A stretch of 64,000 nucleotides of DNA from a virus. The stretch lies in IMG/VR virus record IMGVR_UViG_3300045988_048443; one strand, given 5' to 3'. Made by a program: the position numbers and the translations under genes. The notes under the pieces were generated by a model, which was not told where the DNA came from, did not search any database, and was given only the letters and a program-made list of their open reading frames with translations. Below are positions 3,734 to 37,572 of the stretch, one piece after another (position 1 is the stretch's first letter; the number at the start of each line of letters is the position of its first letter).

Positions 3734-3792
3734 CCGCCCCGTAGAAGATGTAATTGGTAGAACTTCTACTAATCATGCCTTTTACGGGGCGG
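3734..3792 (+). repeat. GC-motif inverted pair (CCGCCCCGTAGAAGAT ... TACGGGGCGG) forming a hairpin element
   Basis: CCGCCCCGTA (3734-3743) is the exact reverse complement of TACGGGGCGG (3783-3792). An inner GTAGAAG (3741-3747) / CTTCTAC (3763-3769) stem has a 15-nt loop. The element starts 11 nt after the stop codon at 3721-3723. Confidence 0.8.
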
Positions 3793-3823
3793 CTTTCATA
3801 TTAATAATTCAAATAATACTACT

Positions 3824-4513
3824 ATGGCTTCACTTGCTCAACTTACTAGTGAAATTTTACATGGTGTAGGTCAGCCTAATAATCATACTCTACGTGAAAG
3901 AGTTCGTAATGCTATAATTCATACTCGTAATGAACTTATACGTAGAAGTTATGAAAACCATGCTTATGTTGATAAAATTCATACTCAACGTTTTAAAGTT
4001 TCACTTATCACAGTTAATGATGGTGACGTAGAACTACCTGAAGATTATGAAGGAGTTCCACTTGATAAAATTAAAAGAACTCTAGATAAAGTTCCAAGAC
4101 CTATTAGACTTACTAATAATCTTCCTTTTGATAGAGTTAGTTCTGTAGGTTATAAAACTAATAGAGAGTTTCCTTATATTAAAGAAACTACTGCTAGATT
4201 TAAAGGAAGTGTTCCTGGTCTTTGTGGTGCTATTAGTTACGACTATATTAATGAATATCTTTATTTATTTCCAGCTAGTAAAGATAAAATTGTTCCAGTA
4301 GATGCTATTGTTATAGAATCAGCTTTTGAACATCCTAATCAAATTCTAGATATTAATGGAGACCTTACTGTTGAGAATCATCTTTATGATGACAACGAGT
4401 GGTTACTTAGTGAAGATATGATTGGTCAAATTAAAGAAATAATATATAAAAGGGAACTATTAAACCAACATCAAGAAACAGATGAAGTTCCTAATGCTAT
4501 AAAATATAATTAG
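3824..4513 (+). CDS. Hypothetical virion structural-module protein
   Basis: 229-aa ORF, tightly packed with the following genes. No motif recognised. Confidence 0.6.
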   Translation: MASLAQLTSEILHGVGQPNNHTLRERVRNAIIHTRNELIRRSYENHAYVDKIHTQRFKVSLITVNDGDVELPEDYEGVPLDKIKRTLDKVPRPIRLTNNLPFDRVSSVGYKTNREFPYIKETTARFKGSVPGLCGAISYDYINEYLYLFPASKDKIVPVDAIVIESAFEHPNQILDINGDLTVENHLYDDNEWLLSEDMIGQIKEIIYKRELLNQHQETDEVPNAIKYN

Positions 4514-4516
4514 TGT

Positions 4517-6164: not shown

Positions 6165-6169
6165 TAATT

Positions 6170-10612: not shown

Positions 10613-10615
10613 ATT

Positions 10616-13177
10616 ATGACTGGAAAAATTAAAAGAAGAAGTCTTCGTTGTGGTGGTAGACCTAAAGCTGACTTCGGTAGTATTTTTACTACATTTATTG
10701 CTCCTGCTTTAGGTGTTGCTGGTTCTGTAGCAGATTCTGCTATAAGTAAAGCTCAAGTTTCAAAGAGCAATACTAAACCAGCTGTTAAAGAGACTAATAC
10801 AGAAGTTACTAATAACAATAATGCTTCTGTTGAAAATCTTCCTACTACTCAAGCTCCTACTAAAGAATCAATTAGCGGACTTGTTACTAGTAATACTATT
10901 ATTCCTCCTGACCCAACTAAAACTCCTGCTATGAGATTAGGCGGTAGAAAGAAATGTTGGATTGGTGCAGCTATTATGGGTGCTACTAGTATAGCAGGTT
11001 CTTTATTTGGTGCTGCTGCTCAAAAAAGAGAAATGCGTCGTCAAAAGAATATTCAAGATTGGCAGAATACTACTCAAGAAGCTGCTAATATGACTTCTGT
11101 TCTTAATAATAGTCAAGATTATCAAGAAGATTATCTTAGACAATTTAGAACTGCTGCTAGACTTGGTAAAACTCTTGGAGCTAAAGGTATTTATATTACT
11201 GATGGTGGAGATGCTACCAAGATAGGAAACAACACATACCTTCTACGGGGCGGCTCTCATGAAGATGTAAATGAGACTGGTCAAACAGGTATAGGTATCA
11301 ATGTTGGTGGTAACGAAGTTGAGGCTGAAGGCGGTGAAGTTGCTCAGAAGAAAAATGGTGCTCTAAGAATCTTTAGTGCTCAACCTATTCTTGGTAATGG
11401 TATGAGTCCTGCTCAAGCTATTCTTAGAGGTTATAATAAAGATTCTGTATTTAGTCAACAACAAGCTTTTAAGAAAAGAAATGGTCTTAAAGATGATGGT
11501 AGTGCTAAATATGGACTTGGTGGAGACATAAAAGGTATTTGGAACTTTATTAGAAGTTATAGAACTCCTGTTAATAACATTGCTGCTCTAGTTACTGCAT
11601 ATCAAAAATTAAATCCTAATAGTAACTATAATAAACAAAAAGGTAAGTTCAAAGGTGGTACTTTTAGAGGTGCTGGTGCAGGTGGTACTTGGACTAACGA
11701 TTATAAATCTAATAAAGGTTTCGATAACTTTAATGATGCTTATGATGACGCTGTAGAACATAATGCTAAAACTTTTATTTTTGGTAATAAGAGATATAAT
11801 ACTCTTAAAGAAAATAATCCTATTAGAGAAATTAATAATAGAGCTGTAGGTTCTTGGAGAGATAGTGTGGTTACTAAAGATAGAACTGGTTATGGTAAAG
11901 ATTTTGGACCTATAAAAGGTGGTGCTTCTTTGATTCCTCTAATTACAGAAACTTACAATCCTAAGAGAATTAAACATAAATTAGGTGGTGGTTTAACTTC
12001 TAAAGATAGAGGTTCTTCTAAACATCCTTATCCTTCTGTATCATCTAAAGATTTTGCAGGTAGTGGTAGAAGTTATCCTATTCCAACTAAAGCTGATGCT
12101 GTTGATGCTTTAAGACTTGCAGGTCTTCATGGAAGAAGTGATGTTAGAAGTAAAGTATTTAGTAAATATCCTAGTCTTAGAAAGAAAAGTTCGTTAGGCA
12201 GCTATACCTCCCCTGTAAAAGACATGAGACCTAAAGCTGGTACTGGTATGTATATTCCTTTTAATAAACGTTATACTTCTATTTATGATGCTCCAGATTA
12301 TGATTATGATTATAATGGTGGTAATGTTTTAGGTAATAATGAAGTAACAGTTACAGCTAAGAGAATTAAGCCTACTTTTATGAAACCAAATAATGATGCT
12401 ATGAATCTTATCAAAGTTCCTAAAGAAGAAGTTCCTTATATTCCACAACATCATAATCGTAGTCGTACTATATTTAGTGGTGGAGATTATTTAGGATTAG
12501 GTATTGATACTCTTGCTGCATTAAGTACAGGTCTCGTAAATTATAATACTGCTGGTAAGTATACTCTTCCTGATAGAGCTCCTATCATTCAAGCTAGTAA
12601 ATTACCTACAACTTATAATGTTAATCCTGAAATAGAAGAGGTTAAACGTTATAGAGATAGACTTACTGGACAAACTTTCAATAATACTTCAAGTTCTGTA
12701 GCTGCTCTTAATAGAAGTGGTGCTATTAATCTTGATGCTCTTTCTAATCTTAGTAAACTTTGGGCTACTAAAGAGAATGAAGAGAACAAGATGCTTACAG
12801 AAGATGCTAAGAATCAACAAACTGTTGCAGCACAAAATGTACAGAATGAACTTGCTCGTCAAAGTGAAATTGCTAGAATTAAAAATGAAGCTATTCAAGC
12901 TAAGGGTGATGCTCTTAATGTTGGTCTTAGTGGATTGTCTCAAGCTTGGACTAATTTCTGGACTGCTGGTAGAACTGCTTATGAAGATGACCAAGCTAGA
13001 CGTGCAATGGTTGCTTCTAGTAAAGATGCTACTCCTACTAGACTTATTGAAATGGGTTATGACTTATCTCCTGACCTTGTAGCTAGTCTTTATAGAACTG
13101 CTAAAGATGATAGAACTAAACGTTTCTATTTGTCTAGATTGTCTTCTGCTCAAAGACAAAGATACGGTATAAATTAA
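10616..13177 (+). CDS. Putative internal virion/ejection protein (853 aa) with Gly-rich hydrophobic segments and a C-terminal coiled coil
   Basis: Hydrophobic Gly/Ala-rich stretches (IFTTFIAPALGVAGSVADSAI; WIGAAIMGATSIAGSLFGAAA). Repeated basic-x-GG motifs. Q/E/A-rich helical C-terminus. Lies upstream of the RNAP block. Confidence 0.45.
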   Translation: MTGKIKRRSLRCGGRPKADFGSIFTTFIAPALGVAGSVADSAISKAQVSKSNTKPAVKETNTEVTNNNNASVENLPTTQAPTKESISGLVTSNTIIPPDPTKTPAMRLGGRKKCWIGAAIMGATSIAGSLFGAAAQKREMRRQKNIQDWQNTTQEAANMTSVLNNSQDYQEDYLRQFRTAARLGKTLGAKGIYITDGGDATKIGNNTYLLRGGSHEDVNETGQTGIGINVGGNEVEAEGGEVAQKKNGALRIFSAQPILGNGMSPAQAILRGYNKDSVFSQQQAFKKRNGLKDDGSAKYGLGGDIKGIWNFIRSYRTPVNNIAALVTAYQKLNPNSNYNKQKGKFKGGTFRGAGAGGTWTNDYKSNKGFDNFNDAYDDAVEHNAKTFIFGNKRYNTLKENNPIREINNRAVGSWRDSVVTKDRTGYGKDFGPIKGGASLIPLITETYNPKRIKHKLGGGLTSKDRGSSKHPYPSVSSKDFAGSGRSYPIPTKADAVDALRLAGLHGRSDVRSKVFSKYPSLRKKSSLGSYTSPVKDMRPKAGTGMYIPFNKRYTSIYDAPDYDYDYNGGNVLGNNEVTVTAKRIKPTFMKPNNDAMNLIKVPKEEVPYIPQHHNRSRTIFSGGDYLGLGIDTLAALSTGLVNYNTAGKYTLPDRAPIIQASKLPTTYNVNPEIEEVKRYRDRLTGQTFNNTSSSVAALNRSGAINLDALSNLSKLWATKENEENKMLTEDAKNQQTVAAQNVQNELARQSEIARIKNEAIQAKGDALNVGLSGLSQAWTNFWTAGRTAYEDDQARRAMVASSKDATPTRLIEMGYDLSPDLVASLYRTAKDDRTKRFYLSRLSSAQRQRYGIN
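11233..11256 (-). repeat. GC-motif copy (reverse orientation) inside a CDS
   Basis: The reverse complement reads GAGCCGCCCCGTAGAAGGTATGTG. In the host gene it encodes L-L-R-G-G-S. Confidence 0.85.
12207..12226 (+). repeat. Decayed GC-motif copy inside a CDS
   Basis: CCTCCCCTGTAAAAGACATG, compared with CCGCCCCGTAAAAGGTATG at 15351. Same reading frame, giving S-P-V-K-D-M. Confidence 0.4.
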
Positions 13178-13189
13178 TATTATATAAAT

Positions 13190-13222: not shown

Positions 13223-13224
13223 AC

Positions 13225-13232: not shown

Positions 13233-13257
13233 TAATCAGTAATTAAATAATAATATT

Positions 13258-14484: not shown

Positions 14485-14490
14485 TAAACT

Positions 14491-16440
14491 ATGCTTAGTA
14501 AAAAAATATATGATAAATTTATAAGTGATGGAGATTTTGTTGGTGCAGCTAATTATTTATCTCGTGCTCACTTTAGTGACCCAGTTAAACAACAAATGGT
14601 TAATCAAACTATTAAAAGTCTTAGAACTGATGGTCGTAGAATACAAGGTATGATGTCTCATGCTGATGATATTCAAAAAGCTGCATATAGTTTTCTCAAT
14701 GCTGTAAATAATAATAATGTTCTTCCAGGTCTTAATAATGGTATAGATTCTGAAGGTAATAGACGTAAAAGTACTAATGGATTTAGTAAAGCTTATTCTG
14801 ACGCTTTAAGAAATTTAGGTAGTACAAAAACTACTGATGCTGAAGGAATATCTATTAAATTTGGTGGTAAGACTGAAAAAAGAACTTTATTTGGTATTGA
14901 TTGGTTAGCTAAAGATGTAGAATATAACGATGATGCTTTTAATGATATGTTGAAACGTACTCATCTTACTAAAGAAGCTTTAATAAAAGCTGGTGCTAAG
15001 ATTAAAGTTCAAAATGGTCAATATATTCTTGATATTAGTAAACGTAGTTCTTTATTTAATAAGATATACGATGGTATTCGTAATATTAAAAACGATAAAG
15101 GTTTATATAGATTTCAAATAGCTGGAGTTGACGCTAAAGGTAATATAATAAAAAATAATGAAAGTTATCGTCCAGCTTCTGCTATGGAAAGAGGTGAACT
15201 TAAACATCAAGGTGTTAATGTTGCTACAAGAGTTGGAGCTTCCTCAAGTCCTATAGAAGAATCAGATGGATATTACTTTAATCCTAGTGTTTCGATGATT
15301 AATAATTTTGAAGCTCCAGCTAAAACTATAGAAAATGCCAATCAAACTATCCGCCCCGTAAAAGGTATGAGTGGTGATGGAAGTGAAGTATCTACTGTTA
15401 GTTCTATGATTCTTCCTTTTAATAGTGCTCGTAGAAAACAGATTAGTGATGCTCTTAATACTGGTAGACTTAATACTGAATTAGCTAATGCTTTAGTAAA
15501 AGAGAATGGTAATGCTATTCTTAATGGTCTTATGAATGCTGATTTTACTCAATATGAAATGTATGTTACTGATGAGGAAAATCCTGATGACCATACTACT
15601 GTTCGCCATTCAGTAGATACTAGTAACGAAAAAGCTAATATTCAAGATTTATTACGTGCTGCTATTGCTAGTGGAAAGTTTGACCCAGAAACTCAAGTTT
15701 CTCTTGGTATGCAAGGTAATCAAACTGGTTATGTTATTACTATTCCAACTAAGATGGATAAGAATACAGAAACAGGTAATAGAGTTGAAGATATTAAAGA
15801 GAATAGTCGTCAAATATTTATTCCTGATTTTATGAATGGTGAAGCTGAGAAACTATTCTCTCAAAATTCTCAGACTAGAGCTATGAAAGAACTTGCTAGT
15901 ATGGAAATGTATAATTATCCTGTTGATATTCCTCAAGATGGTAGACTTAATGTTTATAATGACCCTTCTACAGGAAAGGCAGTTTATCAAATGGAATATG
16001 ATAGTGGTAGAGTACAATCTTTAACTAGAGATGATGCACTTCGTAAAGTTAATAAAATGCTCATAGTTGAAGATGGTATTGATTTAGCTAATAAACAATT
16101 TTATGATGAAGATGGTAATCTCCGTAAAGGTCTTAAAAATAAAGATGGTTCTTTAAATGCCCAATTTCAACAAGATTTAAGTAGACAAATAGATACTTAT
16201 GTTACTAGTGCTATGAGTGAACTTTATCCACAAGCTTGGCAAAGTTTTGCTCCTATTGCTAATAATGTTATAAATGGAGATTTTTCATCTGAAGAATATA
16301 AGACTAAATTAGCTAAAGCTATGGATAGTTTTGTAGATACAGATAATATTAATCTTATTAATAATCAAAGAGCTATTTATTCTAATTATATTCTTAGTAA
16401 TATAGGAATGTATGATAATGATGCTTATAACATTGATTAA
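14491..16440 (+). CDS. Putative internal virion protein (649 aa)
   Basis: Long ORF tightly packed between neighbours (6-nt and 2-nt gaps). No motif recognised. Confidence 0.5.
   Translation: MLSKKIYDKFISDGDFVGAANYLSRAHFSDPVKQQMVNQTIKSLRTDGRRIQGMMSHADDIQKAAYSFLNAVNNNNVLPGLNNGIDSEGNRRKSTNGFSKAYSDALRNLGSTKTTDAEGISIKFGGKTEKRTLFGIDWLAKDVEYNDDAFNDMLKRTHLTKEALIKAGAKIKVQNGQYILDISKRSSLFNKIYDGIRNIKNDKGLYRFQIAGVDAKGNIIKNNESYRPASAMERGELKHQGVNVATRVGASSSPIEESDGYYFNPSVSMINNFEAPAKTIENANQTIRPVKGMSGDGSEVSTVSSMILPFNSARRKQISDALNTGRLNTELANALVKENGNAILNGLMNADFTQYEMYVTDEENPDDHTTVRHSVDTSNEKANIQDLLRAAIASGKFDPETQVSLGMQGNQTGYVITIPTKMDKNTETGNRVEDIKENSRQIFIPDFMNGEAEKLFSQNSQTRAMKELASMEMYNYPVDIPQDGRLNVYNDPSTGKAVYQMEYDSGRVQSLTRDDALRKVNKMLIVEDGIDLANKQFYDEDGNLRKGLKNKDGSLNAQFQQDLSRQIDTYVTSAMSELYPQAWQSFAPIANNVINGDFSSEEYKTKLAKAMDSFVDTDNINLINNQRAIYSNYILSNIGMYDNDAYNID
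15351..15369 (+). repeat. GC-motif copy inside a CDS
   Basis: CCGCCCCGTAAAAGGTATG, encoding I-R-P-V-K-G-M. Confidence 0.85.
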
Positions 16441-26700: not shown

Positions 26701-29700
26701 AGTAGGTAAAGGTCATAAACATTTTGTAGAAATGAATCCTACTACTAAAGCTCTTACTTTTACTGGTAGACTATTTCATGATGATAGATTTGAACTTACT
26801 GATAAAGATGGTAATGTAGATAATAAAGCAGAGAAGTTATTAGAAAAGATGTTTCCTTCTCTTTACGGGGCGGATATAGATGGTTATATTCACTTTACTG
26901 CTAATGGTGATGAAGTTACTGTAAATCTTTCTAAAGAACAAGAAGATGAGATTGCTAATATGATTAGCGATTTTATTACTACTTATGTAAATCAACAAGT
27001 TGAAAAGTTTGATAATTTTAAGAGTATAGATGTTGCTAATATTATCAATGATGATAATGTTGCTGATTTTGTACTTAATTATAGACTTATGTGTGGTAAC
27101 TTTAATGACTTATTTGAAGGTGATACTAAGTTCTATAAAGATAATCAAACTCTTCTTAAACGTACTAAGGAAGACCAGGCTAGTGGAGTACCTTATGGCT
27201 TTGCTGATTATACTACTAATTATGCTAATGAAATGGTAGATGTAGCATTTAGTGAACTTAATACTAGTAGAGTTCAAGCTGAATTTGCTAGTTATAAAAA
27301 TCCTCTTAATGTTACACAACGTAATAAGTTTAGAGGTGTAACTATTAAGAATACTATTAGAACTTCTGAAGAATGTAAAGTTGCAACATTTGATAAAGAC
27401 GGTAAACAACTTTCTGAAGATGGTAGTCTTGTAAAAGACCTTGTAAAGAATGCTGGTCTTACTATTGACCAAGCTAGAACTTTAATAGGTGGTCCTATTC
27501 AATATGAAAATGGTAAACCTGTTATTAAGAATGGTGTTGTTCAAAGAAAAGGTGGTTATCAAGGTACTACTGTAAACGATGCTCAATCTTATATTACTTT
27601 TGAAGAATGGGTTCGTCGTATTGCTGGTAGAGGAAAGCTTAGTGAATATCTTCCTCTTATTAAGAAGATTCAGAATGATGAACCTCTTAGTTCTGGCGAT
27701 ATTGATACTTTTGTACAAGTACAAAAGAACTTCTATTATGACCATTATTTTGATAAGTATTCTAAGAGATTTGTACCTCGTCAAATTAAGAATGCCGAAT
27801 TTGTTCTTGTACCTAGATTTATAAAAGGTACTCAACTTGAACAAGTTTATAATCTTATGAAAGATAATGGTATCGACCAACTTAATACAGAAGAAACAAG
27901 TAAAGCCGGTAAAGCTAGAGTACTTGAAATTTTTGATAGTAAGACTGGAGAAGTAACACAGAAACATATTGATGATTTTAATGCACATGCTAAAGATTAT
28001 GTTGAAGAGTATGATTATAATCATCTTTATACTCAGCAAGAAACTCCTCAACACATGAATGCTGAAAATAAAGCTGGTATTCAAATTATGAAGAAGATTG
28101 TTGATAATATCCCAGTTAATAGTCGTCTTTATGAAAAGAAAGAAGAGTTCTTTAAACTTTATAGTACTAATATTAGAGATTCATTTAATAGTCTTGCTAG
28201 TGAACTTAATATTCCTAGAGACGCTAATGGTAATATTCTTTTTGAAGCAGATGGAACTATTAAGGGTATAGATTATCATACATTCTTTAATAAGTTGAAA
28301 GAAGAGTGTATGCGTTTAGGTCTTGATAGTAATATGATGGATTATGTAACTCTTGCTGAACAAGCTGTTAATCCTATTACTGGAAGACCTAATGCTAATA
28401 TGCCTATGATTCTTAGTAACGCTATTACTAAGCTTGAAAGTGTTAGTCAATCTGTATTCAATAGAGCTATTACTCGTCAAACTCTTCCTGGTTTCCATGC
28501 TGCTCAGATTACTAATGTTGGTTTTAAAGCAACTAAAGAGCAAATTAGTTATTCTAAAGAACTTCGTTATCATCCTGTAACTAAAGAACATCCAGAAGGT
28601 GAACGTTATGTTGAAATAATGCTTCCTGCTAGTAACTTTGGTTTTGCTAAGAATGCTGATGGTAGTTATAAAAAGAATAAAGAAGCCCTTCTTAAAGAAC
28701 TTCAAGCTGCACATCTTGATACTCTTATTGGTTATCGTATTCCAACTGAGGGTAAACAATCTGTTTGTGTAATGAAAGTAGTTGGTTTACTTGATGATGC
28801 TCAAGGTTCTACTATTGTTGTTCCTGATGATTGGGTTTCTCAAACTGGTTCTGACTTTGATATTGACTCTGTATATGGTATTCAATATAGTAGTTATGTA
28901 GATAAGCATGGTAATATTCGTAAGCAAAGTTATTCTGATGAACTTGATATTTACGATTATGCTAACTATGTAAATAGACATCTTGAGAAAGCTGATAAGA
29001 TTAAAGATAAGTCAGTTAGAGAAGCTTTTGAAAAACTTAATAAAGAAATAGATGAACAATTTGAAAAGTCTCGTAAAGAATTAGCTGAAGAAGAAACTCA
29101 AGCTTATGATGCTTTATCTGACGAAACTAAAGAGCTTGTAAAAGCTGCTCATAAGGATTTTGAATCTCAAGCTGTAAAGAATCCAGAAACTGGTAAACTT
29201 ACAAAGGATAGTTATCTTAAACAACTTCAATTTGTAGCTGATTATATTCGTACTAATAAAACTAATCTTGATGCTGCTGATGATAATTTCATTTCAGTAC
29301 ATGAAGATATGGTTGATTCTATTAGTAATGAATACATTGATAAAAAAGCTTTTAAATCTGATAAAGCTAAAGAGATTCTTCAAGCTAGAATTGACAAGTT
29401 TAATAAAGCTGCTAAAAATCTTGGTATTATGAGTTATAATGAATATTTAGCACAAAATGTAGAAGATGCTAATACTCGTAATGCTCGTAATAATCGTATT
29501 CTTGATGATATGATTGATATTCTCAAAGATAATATATCTCTTGAGGAGAACTTGTCGCGTTCTAATTTTGATGATATTATTAATGCACGTGATAAAGTAA
29601 TTAATCCTGTAGTTAAGAAAATACGTAATGCTAGAAGTTCTTATGATTTTCTCGACCAAGCTGATTATCAAGAAGATGTTATGAGTGGTGCTAAACTTAA

Positions 29701-32700
29701 AGCATTTAGTGTTACTCGTGATACTTTTGTTTCTGTTTGTAATACGGTTCAACCTACTATCAATAGTGATTATGAAGTAACAATTTCTTATGATAAAGAT
29801 AAGTATGATGCTAAAGAACTTATAGATAGATTTGGCGAAGCTAATGTTACTACTGATGAAGAGACAGGCGATTATCTTGTAACTCATACTACTATTGGTT
29901 GGACTAATGATAATAAAAATGTAGACGGACGTATTCTTACTGCATATACTTCTCAAACTACTGCTCATATTCTTGATGCTGTTAAAGAAGGTGCTATTCC
30001 AAATGTAAATGATTTTACTTTTGCAGTATATAAAACTCTTCCTGATATTGGTAGTAATTATGATACAACTGTTGCATTTATTATGCAACCTGCTATTAGT
30101 CGTATCGTAGAAGAGTATAATGCTAATAAGTCTATTTATGCCGAAAATACTTCTAAGCCTATTCATAATGCTATTAAAAAATTAGCTATTGAAATGAATA
30201 TTGGAGTAACAGAAGATGACAATATTAAAGCTGTAATAGACAAAGTAAATAATGCTCTAGATACGGAATATAGTCTTACTTCTAATAATAGAGTTATTCT
30301 TAATTATAAAGAACTAGCCAATAGACTTAATCAAAAGGAGAGCCGCCCCGTAGAAGATATGATATATGATATGTCTATACTTTTTGCTTATAATGATATT
30401 AATCGTTTAGCTCAAGGTATTAGTTCTTTAGCTCGTGTTTGTAATCCTGATAGATTTGGTGCTAAACAAACTCTTTTTGCTACTAATAAAGTATTTACTG
30501 ATATTCAAGAAATTGTCAATGGTGAAAATGCTAATATAGAAAATGTTCTTTCTGTTAAAGATAAAGATAACGAAATGTCTTTCCTTGAAGCTATTTATCC
30601 TGGTCTTCTTACTAAAAATGCTGCTGGTAACAAAGTTGTAGATATTAGAAGTTATATGATGGATAAACATAATGATAGTCAATCTAAATATCCTTCTCTT
30701 CATTGCTTCTTAAAGTATGCTACTGCTACATCTAGTAGTATTAATAGTATGTTATTTGATACTCAAACTGATAGTTTTAAGAATCTTGTTTATAGTCTTG
30801 AGAATACTTTTAGTGATAGAAGTCGTAATATTAATGAGAAAGAATATAATGATTTTCAACAATATATTCTTAGTAGTATATATAATCATGTTGCTCCAGT
30901 AATGTATAGCAGTAAAGTATTTGCTGAACAAGACGGTACATTAGCTTATGGTTTTGATAACGAAAGTGATACTATTGCTGAACGTCAAAGAATCTTTGGA
31001 TATAATGCTAAACCTCAGTTTAACTTTGATTGTGAATATATTAATAGACCAACTCCTTCTGAAGTAGAAGCTTTTGCTAAACTTACTCCTGCTCAAAAGG
31101 TTGCTTATCTTCAAAGTAAATCGGAAGATGCTGGTATATTTGGTTTGCTTAAAGTAAACTTGTTCAATCAATATGAATATAATACTACTGGTCAATCTAA
31201 GCAAAGCATTCAATTTAAAGATGATACTACTGATGTAGAAACTGCTTATATGTTATTCGACCAAGCAGCTAATAGTGATAATCCTCTTGTTAAACTTGCA
31301 GCTATTGATATGATTAAGTATGCTTTTGCTGTTGAGAATTTCAAGATGAGACGTAATGGTATTAGTAAAGTTATTACAAACGATGCTCTTAGAAATGCTG
31401 ATTTGTTTGGTGGTAAATCTGCTATTGATTATATAGTTGATGAGTTTAATAACTTTGCTGGAACTTATGATGTTGCTGAACGTTATGTTCGTTCTCATAG
31501 TGATAGCAATTTTATCTATCATAAAACAGTTAAGAATGTTCGTAGAAATGGTACTTATGTTTCTGAATTAAGTAAGTTCAAGAAGCCAAATAATCTTTTT
31601 GTATTTGATTTATCTGATGTTAGTATTGTTGGAGAAAAGATTGTTAATCTTAGACGTGACATAGAAGCTACTACTGATGAGAGTGAAATTACTGCACTTA
31701 ATACAGAACTTAAAACAGCTCTTGCTGAATATAATAATTTAAAGTCTCAAAGAGCACTTGCTACTAAGTATGGTTTCATTAATGAATCAAATACTAATGA
31801 TGACTTTTATGCAAATCATTATGTTCATCTTAATGAAAAAGTAGGTAAAGAATATAAAGCTAGACTTTATAAAATCGTTGAAAATAACGATAAAATATAC
31901 GCTTATCCTATTACCAAACTTGATGAAAATGAAACTGGTGAAGTAAGTCTCAATAGAGAAAATACTAAAGGTTATAGAAGTGAAGGTTTTTATATTGATT
32001 ATATTAATAGATTAGAGAAGGGAGATACTCCTAATATGGACGAACTTAATGAAATGGCTCAAGCTTATAAGTTTAATGTAAAACATATTAAACTTAAAAA
32101 CGCTAATGCTTTTGATATTAATAATCCTAGTAAGTATCAGGAAGCTTCTGCTAAGTTTACTATTAATGAAATTCTTAATAAATATCCTCAAAGTAATGGT
32201 AAAGAATTTACTATTCAGAGTTTCTATTTAAGAAGTAAATCGATTGGTACTGTATTTGGTAATCCTCAACACATTAAAGGAACTTATGTTACTATAGAAG
32301 ATGGTAAAGAAGTTACTAATGAAGTTGATGAAATATTTGAATTTAGAGCTCCTAGAAAATCTGAAGTAGAAAGAGCTAAAGATTTAGGTATTAACGTACC
32401 TTATAACACTTACTTTGTAAGAGTTAAATCAAAAGGTAAACCTAATGCTACTTTGAATACTAATTCTAAACTTGGTGCTAGTGTTCTTGATTTCTCTATT
32501 GATGCTTATAATGACATGAATCGTAGAAGTCATGAAGGCGATTATTCTGCTCGTAAAAAAGTAAATAATCTTTCAGCTAAAGGTTTTAATGCTACACGTA
32601 ATGAGTTCCAATCTCAAGCTGAAGATGTTTATTACAATATAACAACTTATGTTGAAGACAAAGTTAATGACATTACTCAACAACTTAATCAGTTTGTTGA

Positions 32701-35700
32701 AGATAAGGGTCATTTCTTACCTGTAAATGATGCTCGTACTATAGATATTATTAGAAATAATCCTGCTGAAAGAAGAAGATATTTAAAGACTCTTCTTGAT
32801 GCTAGAGCATTGATTAGTAAATATGGTAATATTGCTTCAGTTAAAGTTAATAAAGCTGTAGATATTGATAATACTATAGCTTATGTAGAAAGACTTCAAA
32901 ATGCAATTAAACAACTTACAGATACTTCTATTATTGAACAAGCTGAAAAGTTGTTTGCTAATGATTATCTTGCAAAGCTTAGTGATAATCCTCAAATTCA
33001 AAATAATCTTATTAGTGTATTTGATGGTTTTCATTCTACTAGTTGGTTTGATGCTTGGGTTGGTGATTTACAGGATTCTGGTAATGCTTTTATACAAGTA
33101 CTTACTAAAAATGTAATGTCTGATATTAGAGCTAAAGAACTTCAAGCTAGAAGAACTGTAGATATTTTCAATAAAGAGATAGATAAAATATTTGCTGATG
33201 CAAAAGCTGCTGGTGTTAGTTTGTCATTTGATGATATTATTGATGCTGATGGTAGATTTATTCGTCCTTATAATGATAATTTTGAAAATGATTTAAATAA
33301 ACTTAGACAAGATGAGCGTAACGCTAAATCAGATATAATTAATAATCCTGAAGCTTACGTTGAAGCTAAGCATAAACTTGATAAGTTTTTATTAGACCAT
33401 GTAAATCGTAAGTTTGTTGATAGTTATTATAAAGAACTTTATGATGCTCAGGATGAACTTTATAGAAATCATAGACCTATACTTGAAGAGTATATTAAAA
33501 CAAAAGCTATGATTTCTGAAATTAATGACAGTAGGGTTGATGGTACACTTAGTCCTGAAAAGGAAACTGAATTAAAGAATCTTTGGTATCATCTTAATGA
33601 TATTCGTTCTGAATATGATTTAAATAATGGTGAACCTAAAGAAAGTTTTATTATGGGTTATCCTGGTATGAATCCTTCAACTGGTGAAGTTGTAGACAAA
33701 GAAAGATACCATAAAGCTAGAATAAATAATGCTGATGATTGTAAAGCTCTTGATAAATATCTCAAAACTGTCAATGATATTCGTAATAAGTATAATGATA
33801 GTAGAGTTCGTAAAGGTTTTGAAGACCAATTAAAGCGTATGCTTGATATTGTTGAAACTGCTGAAGCTAGAGACCCATCTGGTAGAATTAGTATTCCTGC
33901 TTCTCAACTTGAAATGAATAAAGAATATAAAGCTGCAAAAGCTTGGCTTGCTACTAATGCTAAATGGACAGTTGACCCAAGCATTCAAGAAGCTATACAT
34001 GAAGCATATAAAACTATGGGTTATAAGGGTGAAAATAATAGTAAGCTTAAAGTATATCTTAGAAAACTTAAAGCTACTAATGTAAATCCTTATGATGAAT
34101 TTGGTCGCTTAGATGGTACTATATTTACTGAAGAACAACAAGCTGCTATTCAAGAAGAAGCTCAGAAACGTTTTAATAATACAAAATATGGTATGGAAAA
34201 TGACCGTATTCTTATTAGTAATGGTCCTGAAGATGATGTTGTTTATCCTGCTGAAGTTTATAAAAGACTTGCAGCTAATGGTGTTCCAAATAAAAAGTAT
34301 CAGCAAATAGTGAAACAAGTTAATGAAATACTTGCTCCACATTATGACATTGCTACTAAACATGTTGCTACTTCAGAGCTTACTGAGGAAGAACTTGATA
34401 AACTTTATCAAGCTTATCAACCTTTGTTTGCAGGTATGAAGAAAACAGAAGATAGTACTAATGGTAAATCTATTGCTTATTTTGTTACTCGTTTTGTAGA
34501 TTTAGATAATTACAATAAAGAAGCATTCAATCTAGAAGAAGAACGAGCTAAAGCTAAAGGAGCTAAGTATTATAAAGCTTGGGAACGAGTTAATAAAATG
34601 GGTATTCCAAAACTTGATGATAAATATCAAGTTGTTACTGATGCTTCAGGTAATATAGTTTATGATGAAACTAAGGATAGAATACCTAATCGTTACATCT
34701 ATGGTACTCTTAAAGTAGATATGGATAAATATCTCAAGACAAAAGGTAAAAAGAAAGCTGAACAACTTCGCAAACAAATGAACGAAAGAACTGAAGCTTA
34801 TCGTACTATACATAATAATCTTGAGACTGTTAATACTCCTTATTATGAAGCTGAACTTAAAAAGCAAAGAGCAAAAGGTGATGCTGAGTTTAAGAAGTGG
34901 TATGATAGAAACCATGTATTTAATCCTTATACTCATAGAATGGAGCCTACTGTAATATGGAGAAAAACTCAAGTTATACCTGCTGTTGCAAATGGTGAAT
35001 GGAATGCTGGTTATACTCAAACTGAACTTGCTCCTAAACGTGCATATAAAAATGAAGATTATGCAGAAGGTGTAGGTTATATTGATAATTATAAGAAAAC
35101 TGATGATAAAACTTATGATTCAGAAGTTGTTCTTAATAAATATCAACGAGACCTTATGGAACATATTCAAAAGACTCTTAATGCTCTTGCTCAAACTGAA
35201 TCTGCAAAACGTTTTATAGGTAGAGGTTATCTTCCTTCTATGAATAAAGGTGCAGAACATGATGCAAAATGGTGGGGAAAACAATTCTTAGAGTTCCTTG
35301 GATATAGTGATAAACTTCAAAATGGTAGAGACCCTTTCTATCATATAGATTATGCTGATGATAAAGCTATTGATATGCCTATGTTAATGGAACAACTTAG
35401 AAATAAAGATTCTGTTAATATAGAGAATATTAAAAAGACTAAGCCACAGCGTATATCTTATGCTGATGATGAAGAATATAATGCTGCACTTACAGCTTAT
35501 AATAAACGTATGGAAGAAGCATTGAAGAAGAATAAAGAAATTCATCGTGCTTTACTTAATAGAGATTATCGTACTGTACTTTCAAATTTCATTACTCAAG
35601 CTGCTCATTTTAATGCTATACAAGATAATAAGTATATGCTTTACTATGGTAAAGAAATGCTTGATAGAATGGAAGTGTATCAAAAGAATGTAGGTTGGAG

Positions 35701-37531
35701 TAATCTAAAGAAAGACCATCAAAGAGGTGCTAGAGGTGAAACTCGTTATCTTACTCAAAAAGATGAAAGACTTCAAGGTCAATATGAGAATTGGATACGT
35801 AGAATTATCTATAATCAGTTTAAAGAAAGTAATGCTAACTTTACTAAAGTTAGTAGTCTTCTTCAATCTTTTACTAGTGCTAAATTTATGATGCTTAATA
35901 TTACTGGTGGTATCGGTAACGTTACTGTTGGTGAATCAGGTATAGCAGGTGAGTGGATAGCTAAAGAATTTCTTGGTGCTAAAGACTATGCTCGTGGTAA
36001 AGCTTTATGGATGCACAATTCATGGAGTTTTATTAATGACCTTGGTAAAAATAAAGCTTCAACATTAGCTAGTGCCATAGTTAAAGAGATGAATGTTATT
36101 GACTTTGACCAACTTGCTGGTATTAGTGATGGTAATCATCTTGATGCAGGTACTGCTTTTGAGAAACTTAGAAATGCTCTTTATTCTCCTAATGCTATGG
36201 GTGAACATTTTATGCAAAATGCTGCTATGTTTAGTCTTATGTATAGTAATAGACTTGTACCTGTAGTTGATGCTGAAAACAGAGGTAAACTCAAGTATCG
36301 TGCTATGAGTAAATATGAATATATTGCTGATTGTCATGAGAAAGCTTTAAAGAAGATTATTAAAGGTACTGAATTTGAAGCTAAGTTTAATAATTATGTT
36401 GGTACTATAAAAGAAGACGCTAATAAACTTAAAGAGTTTGTTTTTGGTCGTAAAGATTTTACTACTGAATTTGCTAGAACTCTTCCTAATAAGATGCAAA
36501 AAGAATTTGTTAAAGTAAAGAAGGAACTTGAAAAGACTGCAACTGCTGATTTTGAAAAGAATAGTACTCTTATTGAAAATCTTGATTTAAAAGACGGTAA
36601 ACTAACTTTTAAAGAAGGTAGTAAACTTGCAGAACTTGATGCGCTTAGCGCAGATAAAGAAGTTTCTGATGCTTATAAACTTCTTGGTGAATTTAAAGGT
36701 AAAGTTATTAGTGTTAATAAAGAGATACATGGTGTATACGATAAGCTTGGTGCTGCACAACTTGAAAAGCATTGGTGGGGTAGTCTTGCTATGCAATATC
36801 ATAAACATATATATCCTGGTATTCTTAAACATTATAGAAGACAAGGTTATTTTAATGAAGAACGTGGAGCTTTTACATTAGGTTGTGGTCCTGCTCTTAT
36901 AGATTTCCTTTCAATGCCTTTAGATAAGATTAAAGCTGATAGAGAAATTAATGGTACTCAACTTGGTGCATTACAAACTCTTCAAAAGTTGTTTACAGGT
37001 TATGTAGATATGGCTACAAACTTTAGTACAAACTGGAATATGTTACCTCGTTATCAACGTGCTGCAATACTTAGAGCTATGGGTAATGTTGCCGGTTCAG
37101 TAGCTGCTATTTCTATGGCTCTTGCTGCTCATGCTATTTGGGACGATAAAGAACTTGAAAATAGTACTTTAGGAAATCTTCTTATTTATGAAGCAGATAG
37201 TCTTGCAACACAAGTTATGATGTATACTCCTCCATTTGTTATAACTGAGGGTAAGAAGTTATATAGTTCTCCTATTGCAGCTCAAACTATGCCTAGTGAT
37301 ATTCTTAAAGCTATGAATATTATAGCAGAAGGACTTATAGCTGGTGATGATTATAACTGGGATTATAGTAGTGGTAGATATGCTAAAGAGAATAAACTTT
37401 ATGTTCTTACTACTAGACAGATACCTATTTATAGAGGTTATAGTAATATTGTTGGTCTTGATAAGAGTAACAGTTACTATAAATTAGGAGATAATATACT
37501 TGGTATAATACCTACTAATGTAAATAAGTAA
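23705..37531 (+). CDS. Virion-packaged RNA polymerase-like giant protein (4608 aa, single ORF)
   Basis: A 13.8-kb uninterrupted ORF. DFDID at 28853-28867 (context QTGSDFDIDSVYG) matches the DxDxD metal-binding loop of the double-psi beta-barrel catalytic domain reported for crAss-like/YonO-type single-subunit RNAPs. It is the last gene of the virion module. Confidence 0.65.
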   Translation: MANCPITPKDFLGTETGTRLKELCGNDVVKFNAITTLVYNPESKTGFTKEFDDYRLGNDAAQEALEFYNSRHFSVGAQTTKSKFNDIVTRFGYTSTTAKVMANRVTGNNILTFFANDVVKGKFNKDNNNANFYANRVVSFGAVQVAKKYFENKGQKFTNKEILGLVNQILGFTSDGDFEKTDDVFANASREDKNFYAMVKEMILNKVSFFNSIYAGDSRLGMLRFKSDEAIDEKADLDSEMESILNGDENDELADFNKEFDVDGTTARWDDNSGMGSNFMKGIDEDIRMILFTIPKLNDINKVDGRYNYDRSNELGTIDFIDGKKVTAAIISKISRDNITSFINSIKTIAEQNKEMSGLIKLYEDLKTNRDFAIRFRSQFVKTIMPKTETRTESDGTVRAVLSNKESNRRQSLIFSFQNNVKHTTLNVDPNAIEVFRSAVESAKRRYKLSAKNEIRRNAAFADIVANLTKALKAYYPDMDVNAIRNYLIGNKTNGHVDVVINTSNLLAHLKNISDASIKANDNLREEQEHKRKWNREEHDDNETYVPLHSEIIPATAVAAANSFAADIEAYSTVALQFNSKNVLGNQSSDIINSSMITYLMNAINGTEMSVDAEGKLSPEALIQYGNEKFRVNSKEKGNQYNLSNILLEQRGVDGKIKVFGLFRKLGDKYVPTEYAKDLINVSLFNGAGNPNTGQNVLYSGMSKMDYIYSAVANFVNTEADYLSKNEYDIDFANYFMRVPSDAPKNFIIRAARYKTKGGKYGNLFNVENSKEVSQAIENYLDTEIPSETRADNEVKTSKFVNLTTNKEYNQMVHDLTTKTIGRRKIMPFNILEGKNHKSGFEITVGYKYTDDSGKVDKYELHGTLDIDSNGAYYITGAKPVLISSMNEIKVSDRFSPTLYQSLVSKINRRANVTGMIGNTKVNRVINTNHPLYIQYRNMFVQELTDMAHSINQWFETDNTGKILRWQKNENPELAEQPKFKGDWGFDEESARRAYTVYEVGKGHKHFVEMNPTTKALTFTGRLFHDDRFELTDKDGNVDNKAEKLLEKMFPSLYGADIDGYIHFTANGDEVTVNLSKEQEDEIANMISDFITTYVNQQVEKFDNFKSIDVANIINDDNVADFVLNYRLMCGNFNDLFEGDTKFYKDNQTLLKRTKEDQASGVPYGFADYTTNYANEMVDVAFSELNTSRVQAEFASYKNPLNVTQRNKFRGVTIKNTIRTSEECKVATFDKDGKQLSEDGSLVKDLVKNAGLTIDQARTLIGGPIQYENGKPVIKNGVVQRKGGYQGTTVNDAQSYITFEEWVRRIAGRGKLSEYLPLIKKIQNDEPLSSGDIDTFVQVQKNFYYDHYFDKYSKRFVPRQIKNAEFVLVPRFIKGTQLEQVYNLMKDNGIDQLNTEETSKAGKARVLEIFDSKTGEVTQKHIDDFNAHAKDYVEEYDYNHLYTQQETPQHMNAENKAGIQIMKKIVDNIPVNSRLYEKKEEFFKLYSTNIRDSFNSLASELNIPRDANGNILFEADGTIKGIDYHTFFNKLKEECMRLGLDSNMMDYVTLAEQAVNPITGRPNANMPMILSNAITKLESVSQSVFNRAITRQTLPGFHAAQITNVGFKATKEQISYSKELRYHPVTKEHPEGERYVEIMLPASNFGFAKNADGSYKKNKEALLKELQAAHLDTLIGYRIPTEGKQSVCVMKVVGLLDDAQGSTIVVPDDWVSQTGSDFDIDSVYGIQYSSYVDKHGNIRKQSYSDELDIYDYANYVNRHLEKADKIKDKSVREAFEKLNKEIDEQFEKSRKELAEEETQAYDALSDETKELVKAAHKDFESQAVKNPETGKLTKDSYLKQLQFVADYIRTNKTNLDAADDNFISVHEDMVDSISNEYIDKKAFKSDKAKEILQARIDKFNKAAKNLGIMSYNEYLAQNVEDANTRNARNNRILDDMIDILKDNISLEENLSRSNFDDIINARDKVINPVVKKIRNARSSYDFLDQADYQEDVMSGAKLKAFSVTRDTFVSVCNTVQPTINSDYEVTISYDKDKYDAKELIDRFGEANVTTDEETGDYLVTHTTIGWTNDNKNVDGRILTAYTSQTTAHILDAVKEGAIPNVNDFTFAVYKTLPDIGSNYDTTVAFIMQPAISRIVEEYNANKSIYAENTSKPIHNAIKKLAIEMNIGVTEDDNIKAVIDKVNNALDTEYSLTSNNRVILNYKELANRLNQKESRPVEDMIYDMSILFAYNDINRLAQGISSLARVCNPDRFGAKQTLFATNKVFTDIQEIVNGENANIENVLSVKDKDNEMSFLEAIYPGLLTKNAAGNKVVDIRSYMMDKHNDSQSKYPSLHCFLKYATATSSSINSMLFDTQTDSFKNLVYSLENTFSDRSRNINEKEYNDFQQYILSSIYNHVAPVMYSSKVFAEQDGTLAYGFDNESDTIAERQRIFGYNAKPQFNFDCEYINRPTPSEVEAFAKLTPAQKVAYLQSKSEDAGIFGLLKVNLFNQYEYNTTGQSKQSIQFKDDTTDVETAYMLFDQAANSDNPLVKLAAIDMIKYAFAVENFKMRRNGISKVITNDALRNADLFGGKSAIDYIVDEFNNFAGTYDVAERYVRSHSDSNFIYHKTVKNVRRNGTYVSELSKFKKPNNLFVFDLSDVSIVGEKIVNLRRDIEATTDESEITALNTELKTALAEYNNLKSQRALATKYGFINESNTNDDFYANHYVHLNEKVGKEYKARLYKIVENNDKIYAYPITKLDENETGEVSLNRENTKGYRSEGFYIDYINRLEKGDTPNMDELNEMAQAYKFNVKHIKLKNANAFDINNPSKYQEASAKFTINEILNKYPQSNGKEFTIQSFYLRSKSIGTVFGNPQHIKGTYVTIEDGKEVTNEVDEIFEFRAPRKSEVERAKDLGINVPYNTYFVRVKSKGKPNATLNTNSKLGASVLDFSIDAYNDMNRRSHEGDYSARKKVNNLSAKGFNATRNEFQSQAEDVYYNITTYVEDKVNDITQQLNQFVEDKGHFLPVNDARTIDIIRNNPAERRRYLKTLLDARALISKYGNIASVKVNKAVDIDNTIAYVERLQNAIKQLTDTSIIEQAEKLFANDYLAKLSDNPQIQNNLISVFDGFHSTSWFDAWVGDLQDSGNAFIQVLTKNVMSDIRAKELQARRTVDIFNKEIDKIFADAKAAGVSLSFDDIIDADGRFIRPYNDNFENDLNKLRQDERNAKSDIINNPEAYVEAKHKLDKFLLDHVNRKFVDSYYKELYDAQDELYRNHRPILEEYIKTKAMISEINDSRVDGTLSPEKETELKNLWYHLNDIRSEYDLNNGEPKESFIMGYPGMNPSTGEVVDKERYHKARINNADDCKALDKYLKTVNDIRNKYNDSRVRKGFEDQLKRMLDIVETAEARDPSGRISIPASQLEMNKEYKAAKAWLATNAKWTVDPSIQEAIHEAYKTMGYKGENNSKLKVYLRKLKATNVNPYDEFGRLDGTIFTEEQQAAIQEEAQKRFNNTKYGMENDRILISNGPEDDVVYPAEVYKRLAANGVPNKKYQQIVKQVNEILAPHYDIATKHVATSELTEEELDKLYQAYQPLFAGMKKTEDSTNGKSIAYFVTRFVDLDNYNKEAFNLEEERAKAKGAKYYKAWERVNKMGIPKLDDKYQVVTDASGNIVYDETKDRIPNRYIYGTLKVDMDKYLKTKGKKKAEQLRKQMNERTEAYRTIHNNLETVNTPYYEAELKKQRAKGDAEFKKWYDRNHVFNPYTHRMEPTVIWRKTQVIPAVANGEWNAGYTQTELAPKRAYKNEDYAEGVGYIDNYKKTDDKTYDSEVVLNKYQRDLMEHIQKTLNALAQTESAKRFIGRGYLPSMNKGAEHDAKWWGKQFLEFLGYSDKLQNGRDPFYHIDYADDKAIDMPMLMEQLRNKDSVNIENIKKTKPQRISYADDEEYNAALTAYNKRMEEALKKNKEIHRALLNRDYRTVLSNFITQAAHFNAIQDNKYMLYYGKEMLDRMEVYQKNVGWSNLKKDHQRGARGETRYLTQKDERLQGQYENWIRRIIYNQFKESNANFTKVSSLLQSFTSAKFMMLNITGGIGNVTVGESGIAGEWIAKEFLGAKDYARGKALWMHNSWSFINDLGKNKASTLASAIVKEMNVIDFDQLAGISDGNHLDAGTAFEKLRNALYSPNAMGEHFMQNAAMFSLMYSNRLVPVVDAENRGKLKYRAMSKYEYIADCHEKALKKIIKGTEFEAKFNNYVGTIKEDANKLKEFVFGRKDFTTEFARTLPNKMQKEFVKVKKELEKTATADFEKNSTLIENLDLKDGKLTFKEGSKLAELDALSADKEVSDAYKLLGEFKGKVISVNKEIHGVYDKLGAAQLEKHWWGSLAMQYHKHIYPGILKHYRRQGYFNEERGAFTLGCGPALIDFLSMPLDKIKADREINGTQLGALQTLQKLFTGYVDMATNFSTNWNMLPRYQRAAILRAMGNVAGSVAAISMALAAHAIWDDKELENSTLGNLLIYEADSLATQVMMYTPPFVITEGKKLYSSPIAAQTMPSDILKAMNIIAEGLIAGDDYNWDYSSGRYAKENKLYVLTTRQIPIYRGYSNIVGLDKSNSYYKLGDNILGIIPTNVNK
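26855..26875 (-). repeat. GC-motif copy (reverse orientation) inside a CDS
   Basis: The reverse complement reads ATCCGCCCCGTAAAGAGAAGG. It encodes S-L-Y-G-A-D. Confidence 0.85.
30343..30361 (+). repeat. GC-motif copy inside a CDS
   Basis: CCGCCCCGTAGAAGATATG, identical over 19 nt to 50178-50196. It encodes R-P-V-E-D-M. Confidence 0.9.
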
Positions 37532-37533
37532 AT

Positions 37534-37572
37534 CCGCCCCGTAGAAGACATCAATAGCGATACTTCTACTAA
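37534..37572 (+). repeat. GC-motif copy with an attached hairpin (CCGCCCCGTAGAAG-N15-CTTCTACTAAT), 3 nt after the RNAP stop codon
   Basis: GTAGAAG (37541-37547) pairs with CTTCTAC (37563-37569) around a 15-nt loop. The geometry and trailing TAAT are the same as at 3741-3773. Confidence 0.8.

Follow-up and report, generated by a model that had tools for sequence, protein, structure and literature searches.

A 64,000-nt stretch of viral DNA (IMG/VR record IMGVR_UViG_3300045988_048443; hereafter the window) carries the same GC-rich word, CCGCCCCGTAGAAG, shortly after the stop codons of two genes, raising the question of whether this word belongs to a 3'-untranslated or DNA element, as proposed in an initial annotation of the two loci, or to something larger. 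Both occurrences stand where they had been annotated: one occupies 3734-3747, 11 nt past the stop codon of open reading frame (ORF) 3226-3723, and the other 37534-37547, 3 nt past that of ORF 23705-37531. Comparison with related genomes reveals that the two loci are intergenic forms of a genome-wide, family-specific DNA word, the first being a full inverted pair and the second a single copy with a weak partial partner.

The window derives from a crAss-like phage (Intestiviridae, Obtuvirinae). Its nearest GenBank record, cr8_1 (Crassvirales, Intestiviridae, Obtuvirinae), is syntenic with it and matches part of the query at ~74% identity, and IMG/VR contains contigs with a primase 96-99% identical to that of the window. 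The crAss-like phages dominate the human gut virome, yet little is understood about how they replicate, package their DNA or control their genes. A set of ~30 conserved and easily mutated cis elements per genome is a direct experimental handle on their biology, with culturable carriers in crAss002 and, reportedly, in crAssphage itself.

A 24-nt motif dispersed over the phage genome

The 14-mer CCGCCCCGTAGAAG forms the core of an asymmetric motif of ~24 nt. The alignment of 178 non-identical instances from AT-rich related contigs yielded the logo T[A/C]tAGCC[G/C]CCCCGTA[A/G]AAG[G/A]TATG, spanning positions -8 to +15, of which the variant used by the window is AGCCGCCCCGTAGAAGAT. With up to two mismatches allowed, the 14-mer has 12 matches in the window against 0.01 expected, and a scan with a weight matrix trained on related sequences identified 17 sites (Table 1), with shuffled sequence never exceeding 10 bits. 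The word is thus not specific to two operon ends, as had been supposed: 11 of the 17 window copies lie within long ORFs, in sense or antisense, and the first locus is itself a 100-nt spacer separating two co-oriented genes. Across 855 kb of related contigs the density is ~1 site per 3.3 kb, and overall there is about one copy per 3.3-4.4 kb.

Classification of 177 instances across related loci placed 86 outside long ORFs, 57 antisense and 34 sense to the gene containing them. The share outside long ORFs (49%, versus ~5-10% non-coding sequence) amounts to intergenic enrichment. Sense-oriented intergenic copies lie 6-30 nt 3' of stop codons, and single intergenic sites include 9 in sense and 6 in antisense relative to genes. 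Within genes, all sense copies use a single stop-free forward frame (..AGC CGC CCC GTA AAA GGT ATG), and antisense copies use all three frames. Such a pattern is incompatible with a peptide motif and speaks against an element acting purely as RNA; a protease site is likewise ruled out by the intergenic copies and the three antisense frames. A recoding or stop-codon signal was also rejected, since TAG and TAA/TAG fall in two of the forward frames, yet sense copies take just the third.

Motif sites draw on the rarest codons. The codons CCC, GGG and CGC make up 1.8%, 1.0% and 1.2% of their respective codon families, and motif sites contain 4 of the 10 CCC, 5 of the 11 GGG and 3 of the 10 CGC codons in the analysed genes. 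Similarly, 23 of the 42 CCCC/GGGG tetramers of the window fall in the 17 sites.

Conservation of sites and lineage-specific versions

Many cr8_1 sites have a counterpart in the window, with the orientation towards the gene preserved. The antisense copy in the primase gene, where it encodes (F/L/I)-Y-G-G-A, occupies the same nucleotide position in 15 lineages with primase identity down to 62%. The sense copy in the SNF2 gene shares one alignment column among six Intestiviridae whose proteins are 29-55% identical, with proline always encoded by CCC; the motif-free Crevaviridae SNF2 homolog has AAT TTT GTA GAA in that column. An antisense copy in the uracil-DNA glycosylase gene is found also in cr8_1 (75223-) and cr271_1 (L176 6425-). 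ORF 23705-37531 is a homolog of the crAssphage gene annotated as a putative RNA polymerase (RNAP) catalytic subunit, and copies lie 3' of this giant virion-RNAP-homolog gene in three genera, represented by the window, cr8_1 (3408-) and cr271_1 (L176 26605-). Even in the diverged E/T/P-rich linker that contains site 22442, cr8_1 has a degenerate CCCCCCCGTAAAGAG at the aligned place, the two proteins being 39% identical. The retention of antisense copies at the same gene positions across subfamilies cannot be explained by a role in RNA 3'-end formation or processing. Within populations, CCCCGT alone is invariant, in a test that is biased since sites were picked by motif score. Among close relatives the antisense copy in ORF 44657-45307 (-) occurs as two alleles that specify different residues (S/F, R/G); this ORF has a weak Pfam match to DUF1599 ('nucleotide modification associated domain 1') that falls short of the curated cut-off.

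Each lineage has its own version of the motif. Phage cr8_1 carries about 24-26 copies of ctctagCC[G/C]CCCCGTAAAAGgtatgta (...GTAAAAGGT), and cr271_1, together with contigs of 62-69% primase identity, carries tAGCTCCCCCGTAGAAgAAATG (AGCTCCCCCGTAGAAGAAATG) in several copies per 21-31 kb locus. The prototype crAssphage (Carjivirus communis) has 31 good copies of ta[g/t]AC[C/T]CCCCGT[A/G]GAGGATGGA (ACYCCCCGTRGAGGATGGA), cr110_1 has 11-14 copies of gAGACCCCCCGTAGAGGA in 34.6 kb, and crAss002 has 11 copies of TTCCCCC[G/A]TAAAGGAG (TTCCCCCRTAAAGGAG) in 33.6 kb. Lineage-wide switches at orthologous sites (GTAGAAGAT versus GTAAAAGGT; CCG versus CTC flanks) demonstrate concerted change. Such lineage-specific versions could help, as a sequence signature, to classify contigs of Intestiviridae.

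Outside the family, no comparable repeat was found in crAss001 (Steigviridae), which has no CCCCGT in 100 kb; its repeated CTCCAGAAGGA was considered as an analogous motif and rejected as coding-related rather than a site family. Motif-bearing phages have in common a set of PolB, SF1-helicase, SNF2, RecT, Gam and DUF932 proteins that crAss001 lacks. A search of bacterial genomes (596 Gb, 185,579 genomes) with a 19-nt degenerate pattern returned 13 scattered matches, at or below our own chance estimate of ~35, which assumes uniform base composition, ruling out a host repeat or an element of the repetitive extragenic palindromic (REP) type. The Rfam scan returned only a tRNA-Gln and no family matching the motif, so a known RNA family was discarded as well. 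Searches of open-access text, using variant motif spellings as well as crAss promoter and repeat terms, retrieved only unrelated primer sequences, with figure-only logos and paywalled papers escaping such searches, and no such motif is mentioned in the crAss002 paper (PMC8042965), a Crassvirales review or the crAssphage phage-plasmid preprint (10.1101/2024.03.20.585998). We found no description of the motif in these sources and regard it as a family signature of Intestiviridae crAss-like phages.

Spacing and relative orientation

Motif sites are more evenly spaced than random in three genomes (gap coefficient of variation 0.54, 0.56 and 0.43; P <= 0.003), and neighbouring sites tend to be inverted relative to one another: 18 of 24 in crAssphage, 14 of 17 in cr8_1, 8 of 8 in the crAss002 segment and 11 of 14 in the window (permutation P 0.007-0.03). 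This preference weakens with distance: opposite outnumbers same orientation 22 to 1 among neighbours less than 1.5 kb apart, 14 to 5 from 1.5 to 3 kb and 21 to 10 from 3 to 5 kb, whereas the count is 10 to 9 beyond 5 kb. Inversion is nearly universal between neighbours within ~3 kb of each other. Close, face-to-face pairs 47-79 nt apart are common, and a copy in a short intergenic spacer is often doubled as an inverted pair. Contig ends do not coincide with motif sites, and no pattern linking contig or physical ends to the sites emerged, an observation with no bearing on single-strand nicks of the T5 type in virion DNA.

A recombination junction for gene cassettes was also considered and rejected, as homology between sites 47339- and 44918+ breaks ~90 nt from the motif and not at it. 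The variable cassette between these two sites (45316-47300, -) gives rise to intersite distances of ~1.1-3.2 kb among contigs with 90-99% identical primase, and the 488-aa ORF at 45577-47043 has no counterpart in cr8_1 or in any other crAss genome included in the comparison.

Secondary structure at the two loci

The initial annotation had described a composite 3'-untranslated element in which a stop codon is followed by the motif, a 15-nt loop and CTTCTACTAAT, with GTAGAAG pairing to CTTCTAC. The sequence part of this description is accurate: CTTCTACTAAT lies exactly 15 nt downstream at both loci, and the 11-mer has no other occurrence in the window. The pairing itself is weak at the second locus (Table 1) and, at the first, is missing from both the minimum-energy and the centroid folds, the partner of CTTCTAC there being GGTAGAA (3756-3762) and not the motif's own GTAGAAG. 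Nor is the 7-bp stem a property of the motif, as an exact downstream complement of GTARAAG is present at 8 of 259 non-identical sites versus 18 in the upstream control region. In close relatives both loci are almost unchanged, and the few variants (CTTCTAAC, CTTCTAT) break the inner stem and never the outer one. The composite element is thus not supported. The conserved unit is the 24-nt motif itself, with about half of its copies coding and in either orientation.

The inverted copy noted at the first locus does exist, as CCGCCCCGTAAAAG at 3779-3792 of the minus strand. Together with the plus-strand copy it closes a long hairpin (0 of 200 shuffles equally stable) whose 14-bp outer stem, with one G-U pair, consists of motif and inverted motif and is intact in 9 of 9 relative versions, with inner stems of 3 bp and 9 bp. 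T-rich flanks on both strands give this hairpin the look of a bidirectional terminator; the tail 3' of the locus is CUUUCAUAUU, and the consensus scan lists merely a 6-bp sub-stem there. The minus-strand copy at 47339 forms a hairpin with a degenerate inverted partner, its closing stem being preserved in all relatives, including a divergent cr8_1-like version. At the equivalent of the second locus, cr271_1 has a T-run and a 15-bp stem to which the motif contributes its 3' half, and cr8_1 has none. Most motif copies have no hairpin partner, and no significant structure was detected at site 40664-. Where a motif pairs with a full or partial inverted copy, a hairpin arises as a local by-product, as at 3734-3792, at 47278-47338 and, weakly, at 37541-37569; such hairpins may nevertheless act as terminators or RNA stabilisers. 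For annotation this serves as a warning that GC-rich hairpins following genes in these phages are built from a module with another, genome-wide role.

The separate hairpin annotated downstream of the second locus (37588-37653) was recovered as a strong structure that is likely an intrinsic terminator, and the U-run at this locus belongs to it. The corollary drawn in the initial annotation, that the GC-rich word stands apart as an element of its own and is more than a terminator, is supported, and a DNA-level or protein-binding role for it is plausible. A tRNA-Gln gene (anticodon UUG; 37691-37762, +) lies nearby at the junction of two convergent gene blocks, where the cr8_1 and cr271_1 annotations also place a tRNA-Gln. 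This convergent junction also contains two facing, strong, terminator-like hairpins with T-runs, at 37850-37880 (+) and 37961-37928 (-), neither of them motif-built.

Table 1. Motif copies and hairpins in the window. In the text, sites are named by the lower coordinate on the plus strand and by the higher on the minus strand.
Feature	Coordinates	Strand	Context	Score or stability	Remarks
Motif copy 1, TTAAACCCGCCCCGTAGAAGATGTAA	3728-3753	+	Intergenic, 5 nt past stop of ORF 3226-3723	35.7 bits	Exact 14-mer
Motif copy 2, TGAAAGCCGCCCCGTAAAAGGCATGA	3773-3798	-	Inverted partner of copy 1	40.7 bits	1 mismatch to 14-mer
Motif copy	11234-11259	-	Antisense in ORF 10616-13177	43.3 bits	cr8_1 ortholog 29623+, flanks similar
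Weak/degenerate motif copy	12202-12227	+	Sense in ORF 10616-13177	23.2 bits	
Motif copy	15345-15370	+	Sense in ORF 14491-16440	36.8 bits	Peptide I-R-P-V-K-G-M (frame analysis)
Motif copy	20146-20171	-	Antisense in ORF 16443-23621, low-complexity linker	36.1 bits	cr8_1 equivalent 20142+
Motif copy	22442-22467	+	Sense in ORF 16443-23621, poorly conserved linker	32.0 bits	Peptide S-H-P-V-E-D-V
Weak motif copy	26854-26879	-	Antisense in giant ORF 23705-37531	23.2 bits	
Motif copy	30337-30362	+	Sense in giant ORF 23705-37531	39.8 bits	cr8_1 copy 10521-, similar distance to gene end
Motif copy, second annotated locus	37528-37553	+	Overlaps giant-ORF stop (TAA 37529-37531)	29.5 bits	
Motif copy	40639-40664	-	Intergenic, ORFs 40721-41002 / 39840-40436, gene-oriented	39.9 bits	No hairpin; fold z -0.9
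Motif copy	44918-44943	+	Antisense in ORF 44657-45307	34.6 bits	cr8_1 ortholog 88046-, flanks near-identical
Motif copy	47314-47339	-	Intergenic, 11 nt past stop of ORF 47350-47706	35.0 bits	
Motif copy	50172-50197	+	Antisense in primase gene 49792-51018	37.3 bits	Read (I)-F-Y-G-A
Motif copy	54984-55009	-	Sense in SNF2-type ATPase gene 54091-55506	25.6 bits	Read R-P-V-K-E
Motif copy	58129-58154	+	Antisense in uracil-DNA glycosylase gene 57766-58335	31.7 bits	
Weak motif copy	62297-62322	+	CTAG provides minus-strand TAG stop of ORF 62299-62640	17.7 bits	cr8_1 similar weak copy 71520-
Long hairpin from copies 1 and 2	3734-3792		First annotated locus	-35.7 kcal/mol, z -8.0	
Short hairpin, GTAGAAG/15-nt loop/CTTCTAC	37541-37569	+	Second annotated locus	-9.0 kcal/mol, z -3.3	7-bp stem; weak
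Strong independent hairpin, then UUUUCUUAUUUU	37588-37653	+		-26.1 kcal/mol, z -6.2	Not motif-derived
Hairpin, motif and degenerate inverted partner (AGCCGC...GCGGCU), then UUUAUUG	47278-47338	-		-22.6 kcal/mol, z -3.5	

A putative phage-specific reader of the motif

We tentatively favour the notion that the motif provides genome-wide recognition sites for a phage-specific, DNA-acting factor with a coverage-type role, a reading that we consider plausible rather than probable. A phage-specific factor recognising the sequence would read the motif as DNA, its specificity would have drifted jointly with the motif, lineage by lineage, and its job would need coverage of the whole genome at short intervals. 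The motif would mark phage DNA, or load something onto it, for genome maintenance, be it replication/recombination, end processing, protection or global silencing. The transcript of an inverted pair would fold into a hairpin, probably also terminating or stabilising RNA, as is the case with the DNA uptake sequences of Neisseria and Haemophilus. That the motif is read as DNA, that its reader is phage-encoded and how this reader acts are all things we infer from sequence patterns. A bolder version, which we hold to be doubtful, envisages a hitherto unrecognised Intestiviridae 'self-DNA' code of ~25-30 evenly spaced 24-nt words with which a co-evolving, phage-encoded reader would tell phage from host DNA and direct end protection, recombination, priming or silencing. 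Such a code, if true, would be the phage counterpart of Chi or of the DNA uptake sequence in the most abundant human gut phage family. If the reader defines compatibility groups, the lineage versions of the motif would also matter for how gut phages co-infect, recombine and superinfect.

A close parallel in distribution is offered by the DNA uptake sequences (DUS) of Neisseria and the uptake signal sequences (USS) of Pasteurellaceae. Like the motif, these are asymmetric words with an extended consensus that are massively over-represented in one lineage, occur on both strands and in genes in tolerated frames, form inverted pairs that serve as terminator hairpins after genes, and change in concert into lineage 'dialects'. 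Even spacing has also been reported for USS. The motif differs in being carried by a phage and not by a competent bacterium, in its length (~24 nt versus a 10-12 nt core) and in the conservation of single positions over very deep divergence. No uptake machinery or ComP-like receptor emerged from Pfam and PHROG scans of the ORFs examined, which did not include a search aimed at ComP.

Several observations weigh against the favoured reading. The preference for inverted neighbours fades with distance, and may therefore reflect only hairpin use or the avoidance of deletion-prone direct repeats, rather than strand-specific reading. A replication-polarity signal is unsupported, with neither GC nor AT skew switching at the motif across 105 sites. 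The layout of a specific block, GTA and a purine run fits a phage RNA-polymerase promoter too. Finally, no reader protein was found: the phyletic pattern highlighted two Intestiviridae-only proteins as weak candidates (the SSB-like product of ORF 51129-52106 and that of ORF 52212-53027), neither with a PHROG match and the latter also with no Pfam match. The product of ORF 52212-53027 (-) is a 271-aa protein present only in the five Intestiviridae compared and encoded between RecT and an SSB-like gene. Its confident AlphaFold model (pLDDT 82) has best PDB matches with Foldseek E >= 0.5 and may represent a new fold; as a motif reader it is a weak candidate.

Alternative explanations

Two more specific versions of the favoured reading and three competing explanations were weighed against this evidence. 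The strongest competitor, in our view unlikely, is that the motif serves the giant single-polypeptide virion RNAP, or a sequence-specific primase, as a promoter or priming start. The enzyme would recognise the GC-rich block and initiate, on both strands and genome-wide, at the purine that follows GTA. The phage encodes a virion RNAP homolog (ORF 23705-37531), and T7/SP6-type promoters resemble the motif in length (~23 nt, with ~20-23 nt of conserved asymmetric sequence and a purine after GTA in the logo), in number (ten to thirty per genome) and in layout, with a lineage-specific upstream block, a conserved core, GTA and a purine-rich start (R-A-A-G-R, with the variable position occupied by a purine) in phages that encode their own polymerase. 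Between-lineage variation is indeed concentrated in the upstream block, even spacing would suit a genome with a variable entering end, crAss002 being predicted to be circularly permuted (PMC8042965), and sequence motifs with a minimum search width of 15 nt serve as promoters for other single-polypeptide two-barrel phage polymerases (10.1101/2022.12.01.518664). Placement nevertheless speaks against a promoter: those of the T7 type lie between genes, upstream of them and all directed towards them, whereas the motif points either way regardless of gene direction, half of its copies fall within genes and these are more often antisense, and face-to-face pairs are common. Moreover, crAss001 has the polymerase and lacks the motif, and early transcripts of the phi14:2 virion polymerase have no common upstream motif (10.1101/2020.03.07.982082). 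Priming by the primase is countered by its class, as these phages have a DnaG-type enzyme; DnaG-type primases need only trinucleotide sites. Improbable, though a specific version of the recognition-site reading, is a Chi-like polar signal for a DNA-tracking helicase-nuclease or recombination machinery that would spare or recombine phage DNA but not host DNA lacking the word. Chi (RecBCD/AddAB) is likewise asymmetric, occurs once per few kb in coding and non-coding sequence, acts at a distance on a tracking enzyme and marks 'self' DNA. The motif resembles E. coli Chi in density (~1 per 3.3-4.4 kb), is evenly spaced in both orientations and is missing from bacterial genomes. Its carriers also encode an SF1 (RecD-like) helicase, RecT and a Gam-like protein, none of which is present in the motif-free crAss001. 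Known Chi sites, however, are 5-8 nt long, read by a host enzyme and co-oriented with replication, whereas the information of the motif spans ~24 nt with lineage-specific flanks, its orientations are about equal, their pattern decays with distance, and no skew polarity accompanies the sites; the Gam-like nuclease inhibitor encoded by these phages is a further objection. A packaging contrast, with crAss002 predicted to be headful-packaged and circularly permuted (PMC8042965) as opposed to the fixed terminal repeats of crAss001, would favour a Chi-like signal, but it involves one phage per family, and crAssphage itself may carry terminal repeats (10.1101/2024.03.20.585998).

Equally improbable, in our estimation, is the other specific version, in which the motif provides operator or 'stoperator' sites for a global phage repressor or architectural protein, in keeping with a plasmid-like carrier state. 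The stoperators of cluster A mycobacteriophages and the C1 operators of P1 are also dispersed asymmetric sites (13-17 bp, twenty to thirty-odd per genome) that co-evolve with their binding protein, with single and inverted-pair forms in P1. The asymmetric ~20-nt sites, at 20-30 copies per genome and single or in inverted pairs, correspond to these, as do the lineage-specific variants expected of immunity groups. CrAssphage has been proposed to be a phage-plasmid with a predicted origin upstream of repL (Schmidtke et al. 2024, 10.1101/2024.03.20.585998), and a motif pair (95745+/95875-) lies directly upstream of repL at that origin. The crAssphage record BK010471 has two repL genes, and this pair and a second inverted pair (28077+/28183-) each lie a few hundred nt upstream of one of them. 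Against operators, known sites are tied to transcription direction or promoters and are mainly intergenic, whereas motif orientation is independent of genes, being mixed both within genes (57 antisense, 34 sense) and at single intergenic sites (9 sense, 6 antisense), and many copies lie deep in genes at conserved coding positions; the spacing within pairs is variable, unlike that of P1 bivalent operators, and Pfam/PHROG scans of small ORFs were uninformative and yielded no repressor candidate. The RNA element initially proposed, be it a terminator, a processing or stability signal, or a set of long-range duplexes that adjacent inverted copies would form within polycistronic transcripts, appears more improbable still. 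The intergenic enrichment, the position of sense intergenic copies just past stop codons, the nearly exclusive inversion of close copies and the stable hairpins with U-rich tails (3734-3792, 47278-47338 and the cr271_1 site after the giant gene) all agree with it, and the first locus and site 47339 resemble intrinsic (Rho-independent) terminators as GC-stem hairpins with U-rich sequence behind them, 3' of a gene. The conserved unit of the motif, however, is a single arm rather than a whole stem-loop; most single copies lack a complementary partner in their vicinity, half of all copies fall within genes, conservation is as strict for antisense as for sense copies, no Rfam family matches, and cleavage of long-range duplexes would cut within essential coding regions. 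Very improbable, lastly, is a selfish mobile mini-element comparable to yeast mitochondrial GC clusters, Rickettsia palindromic elements or miniature inverted-repeat transposable elements (MITEs). A GC-rich word in a 30% GC genome, palindromic pairs and in-frame copies within genes are all reminiscent of such elements. The primase and SNF2 alignments largely refute this origin, as the motif occupies ungapped columns over existing peptides (F-Y-G-G-A, P-V-K/E-E) with no insertions; in addition, its positions are common to subfamilies rather than variable, the ~24-nt unit has neither terminal repeats nor target duplications, and the spacing is even, not clustered.

Additional observations

The cr8_1 record (MT774384) has a 55-nt terminal overlap and stops right within the run of Gs of a motif copy, probably through an assembly break at the homopolymer rather than at a physical end. 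Three IMG/VR contigs with a primase 98-99% identical to that of the window (3300045988_068777, 125,720 nt; 3300045988_064312, 167,107 nt; 3300029413_000001, 222,067 nt) extend far beyond the ~93 kb genome and are probably concatemeric or chimeric assemblies. An unrelated and rarer 35-nt GC-rich element, taATGGCCACAAGGGCGAGAGGTGTTCCGAAAT, occurs in cr127_1 (Crevaviridae) in 7 copies on both strands (L181+L183: 1779-, 11354+, 11922-, 19709-, 28708-, 28869+, 59323+), one of them in the uracil-DNA glycosylase gene, and may be an analogous family-specific signal.

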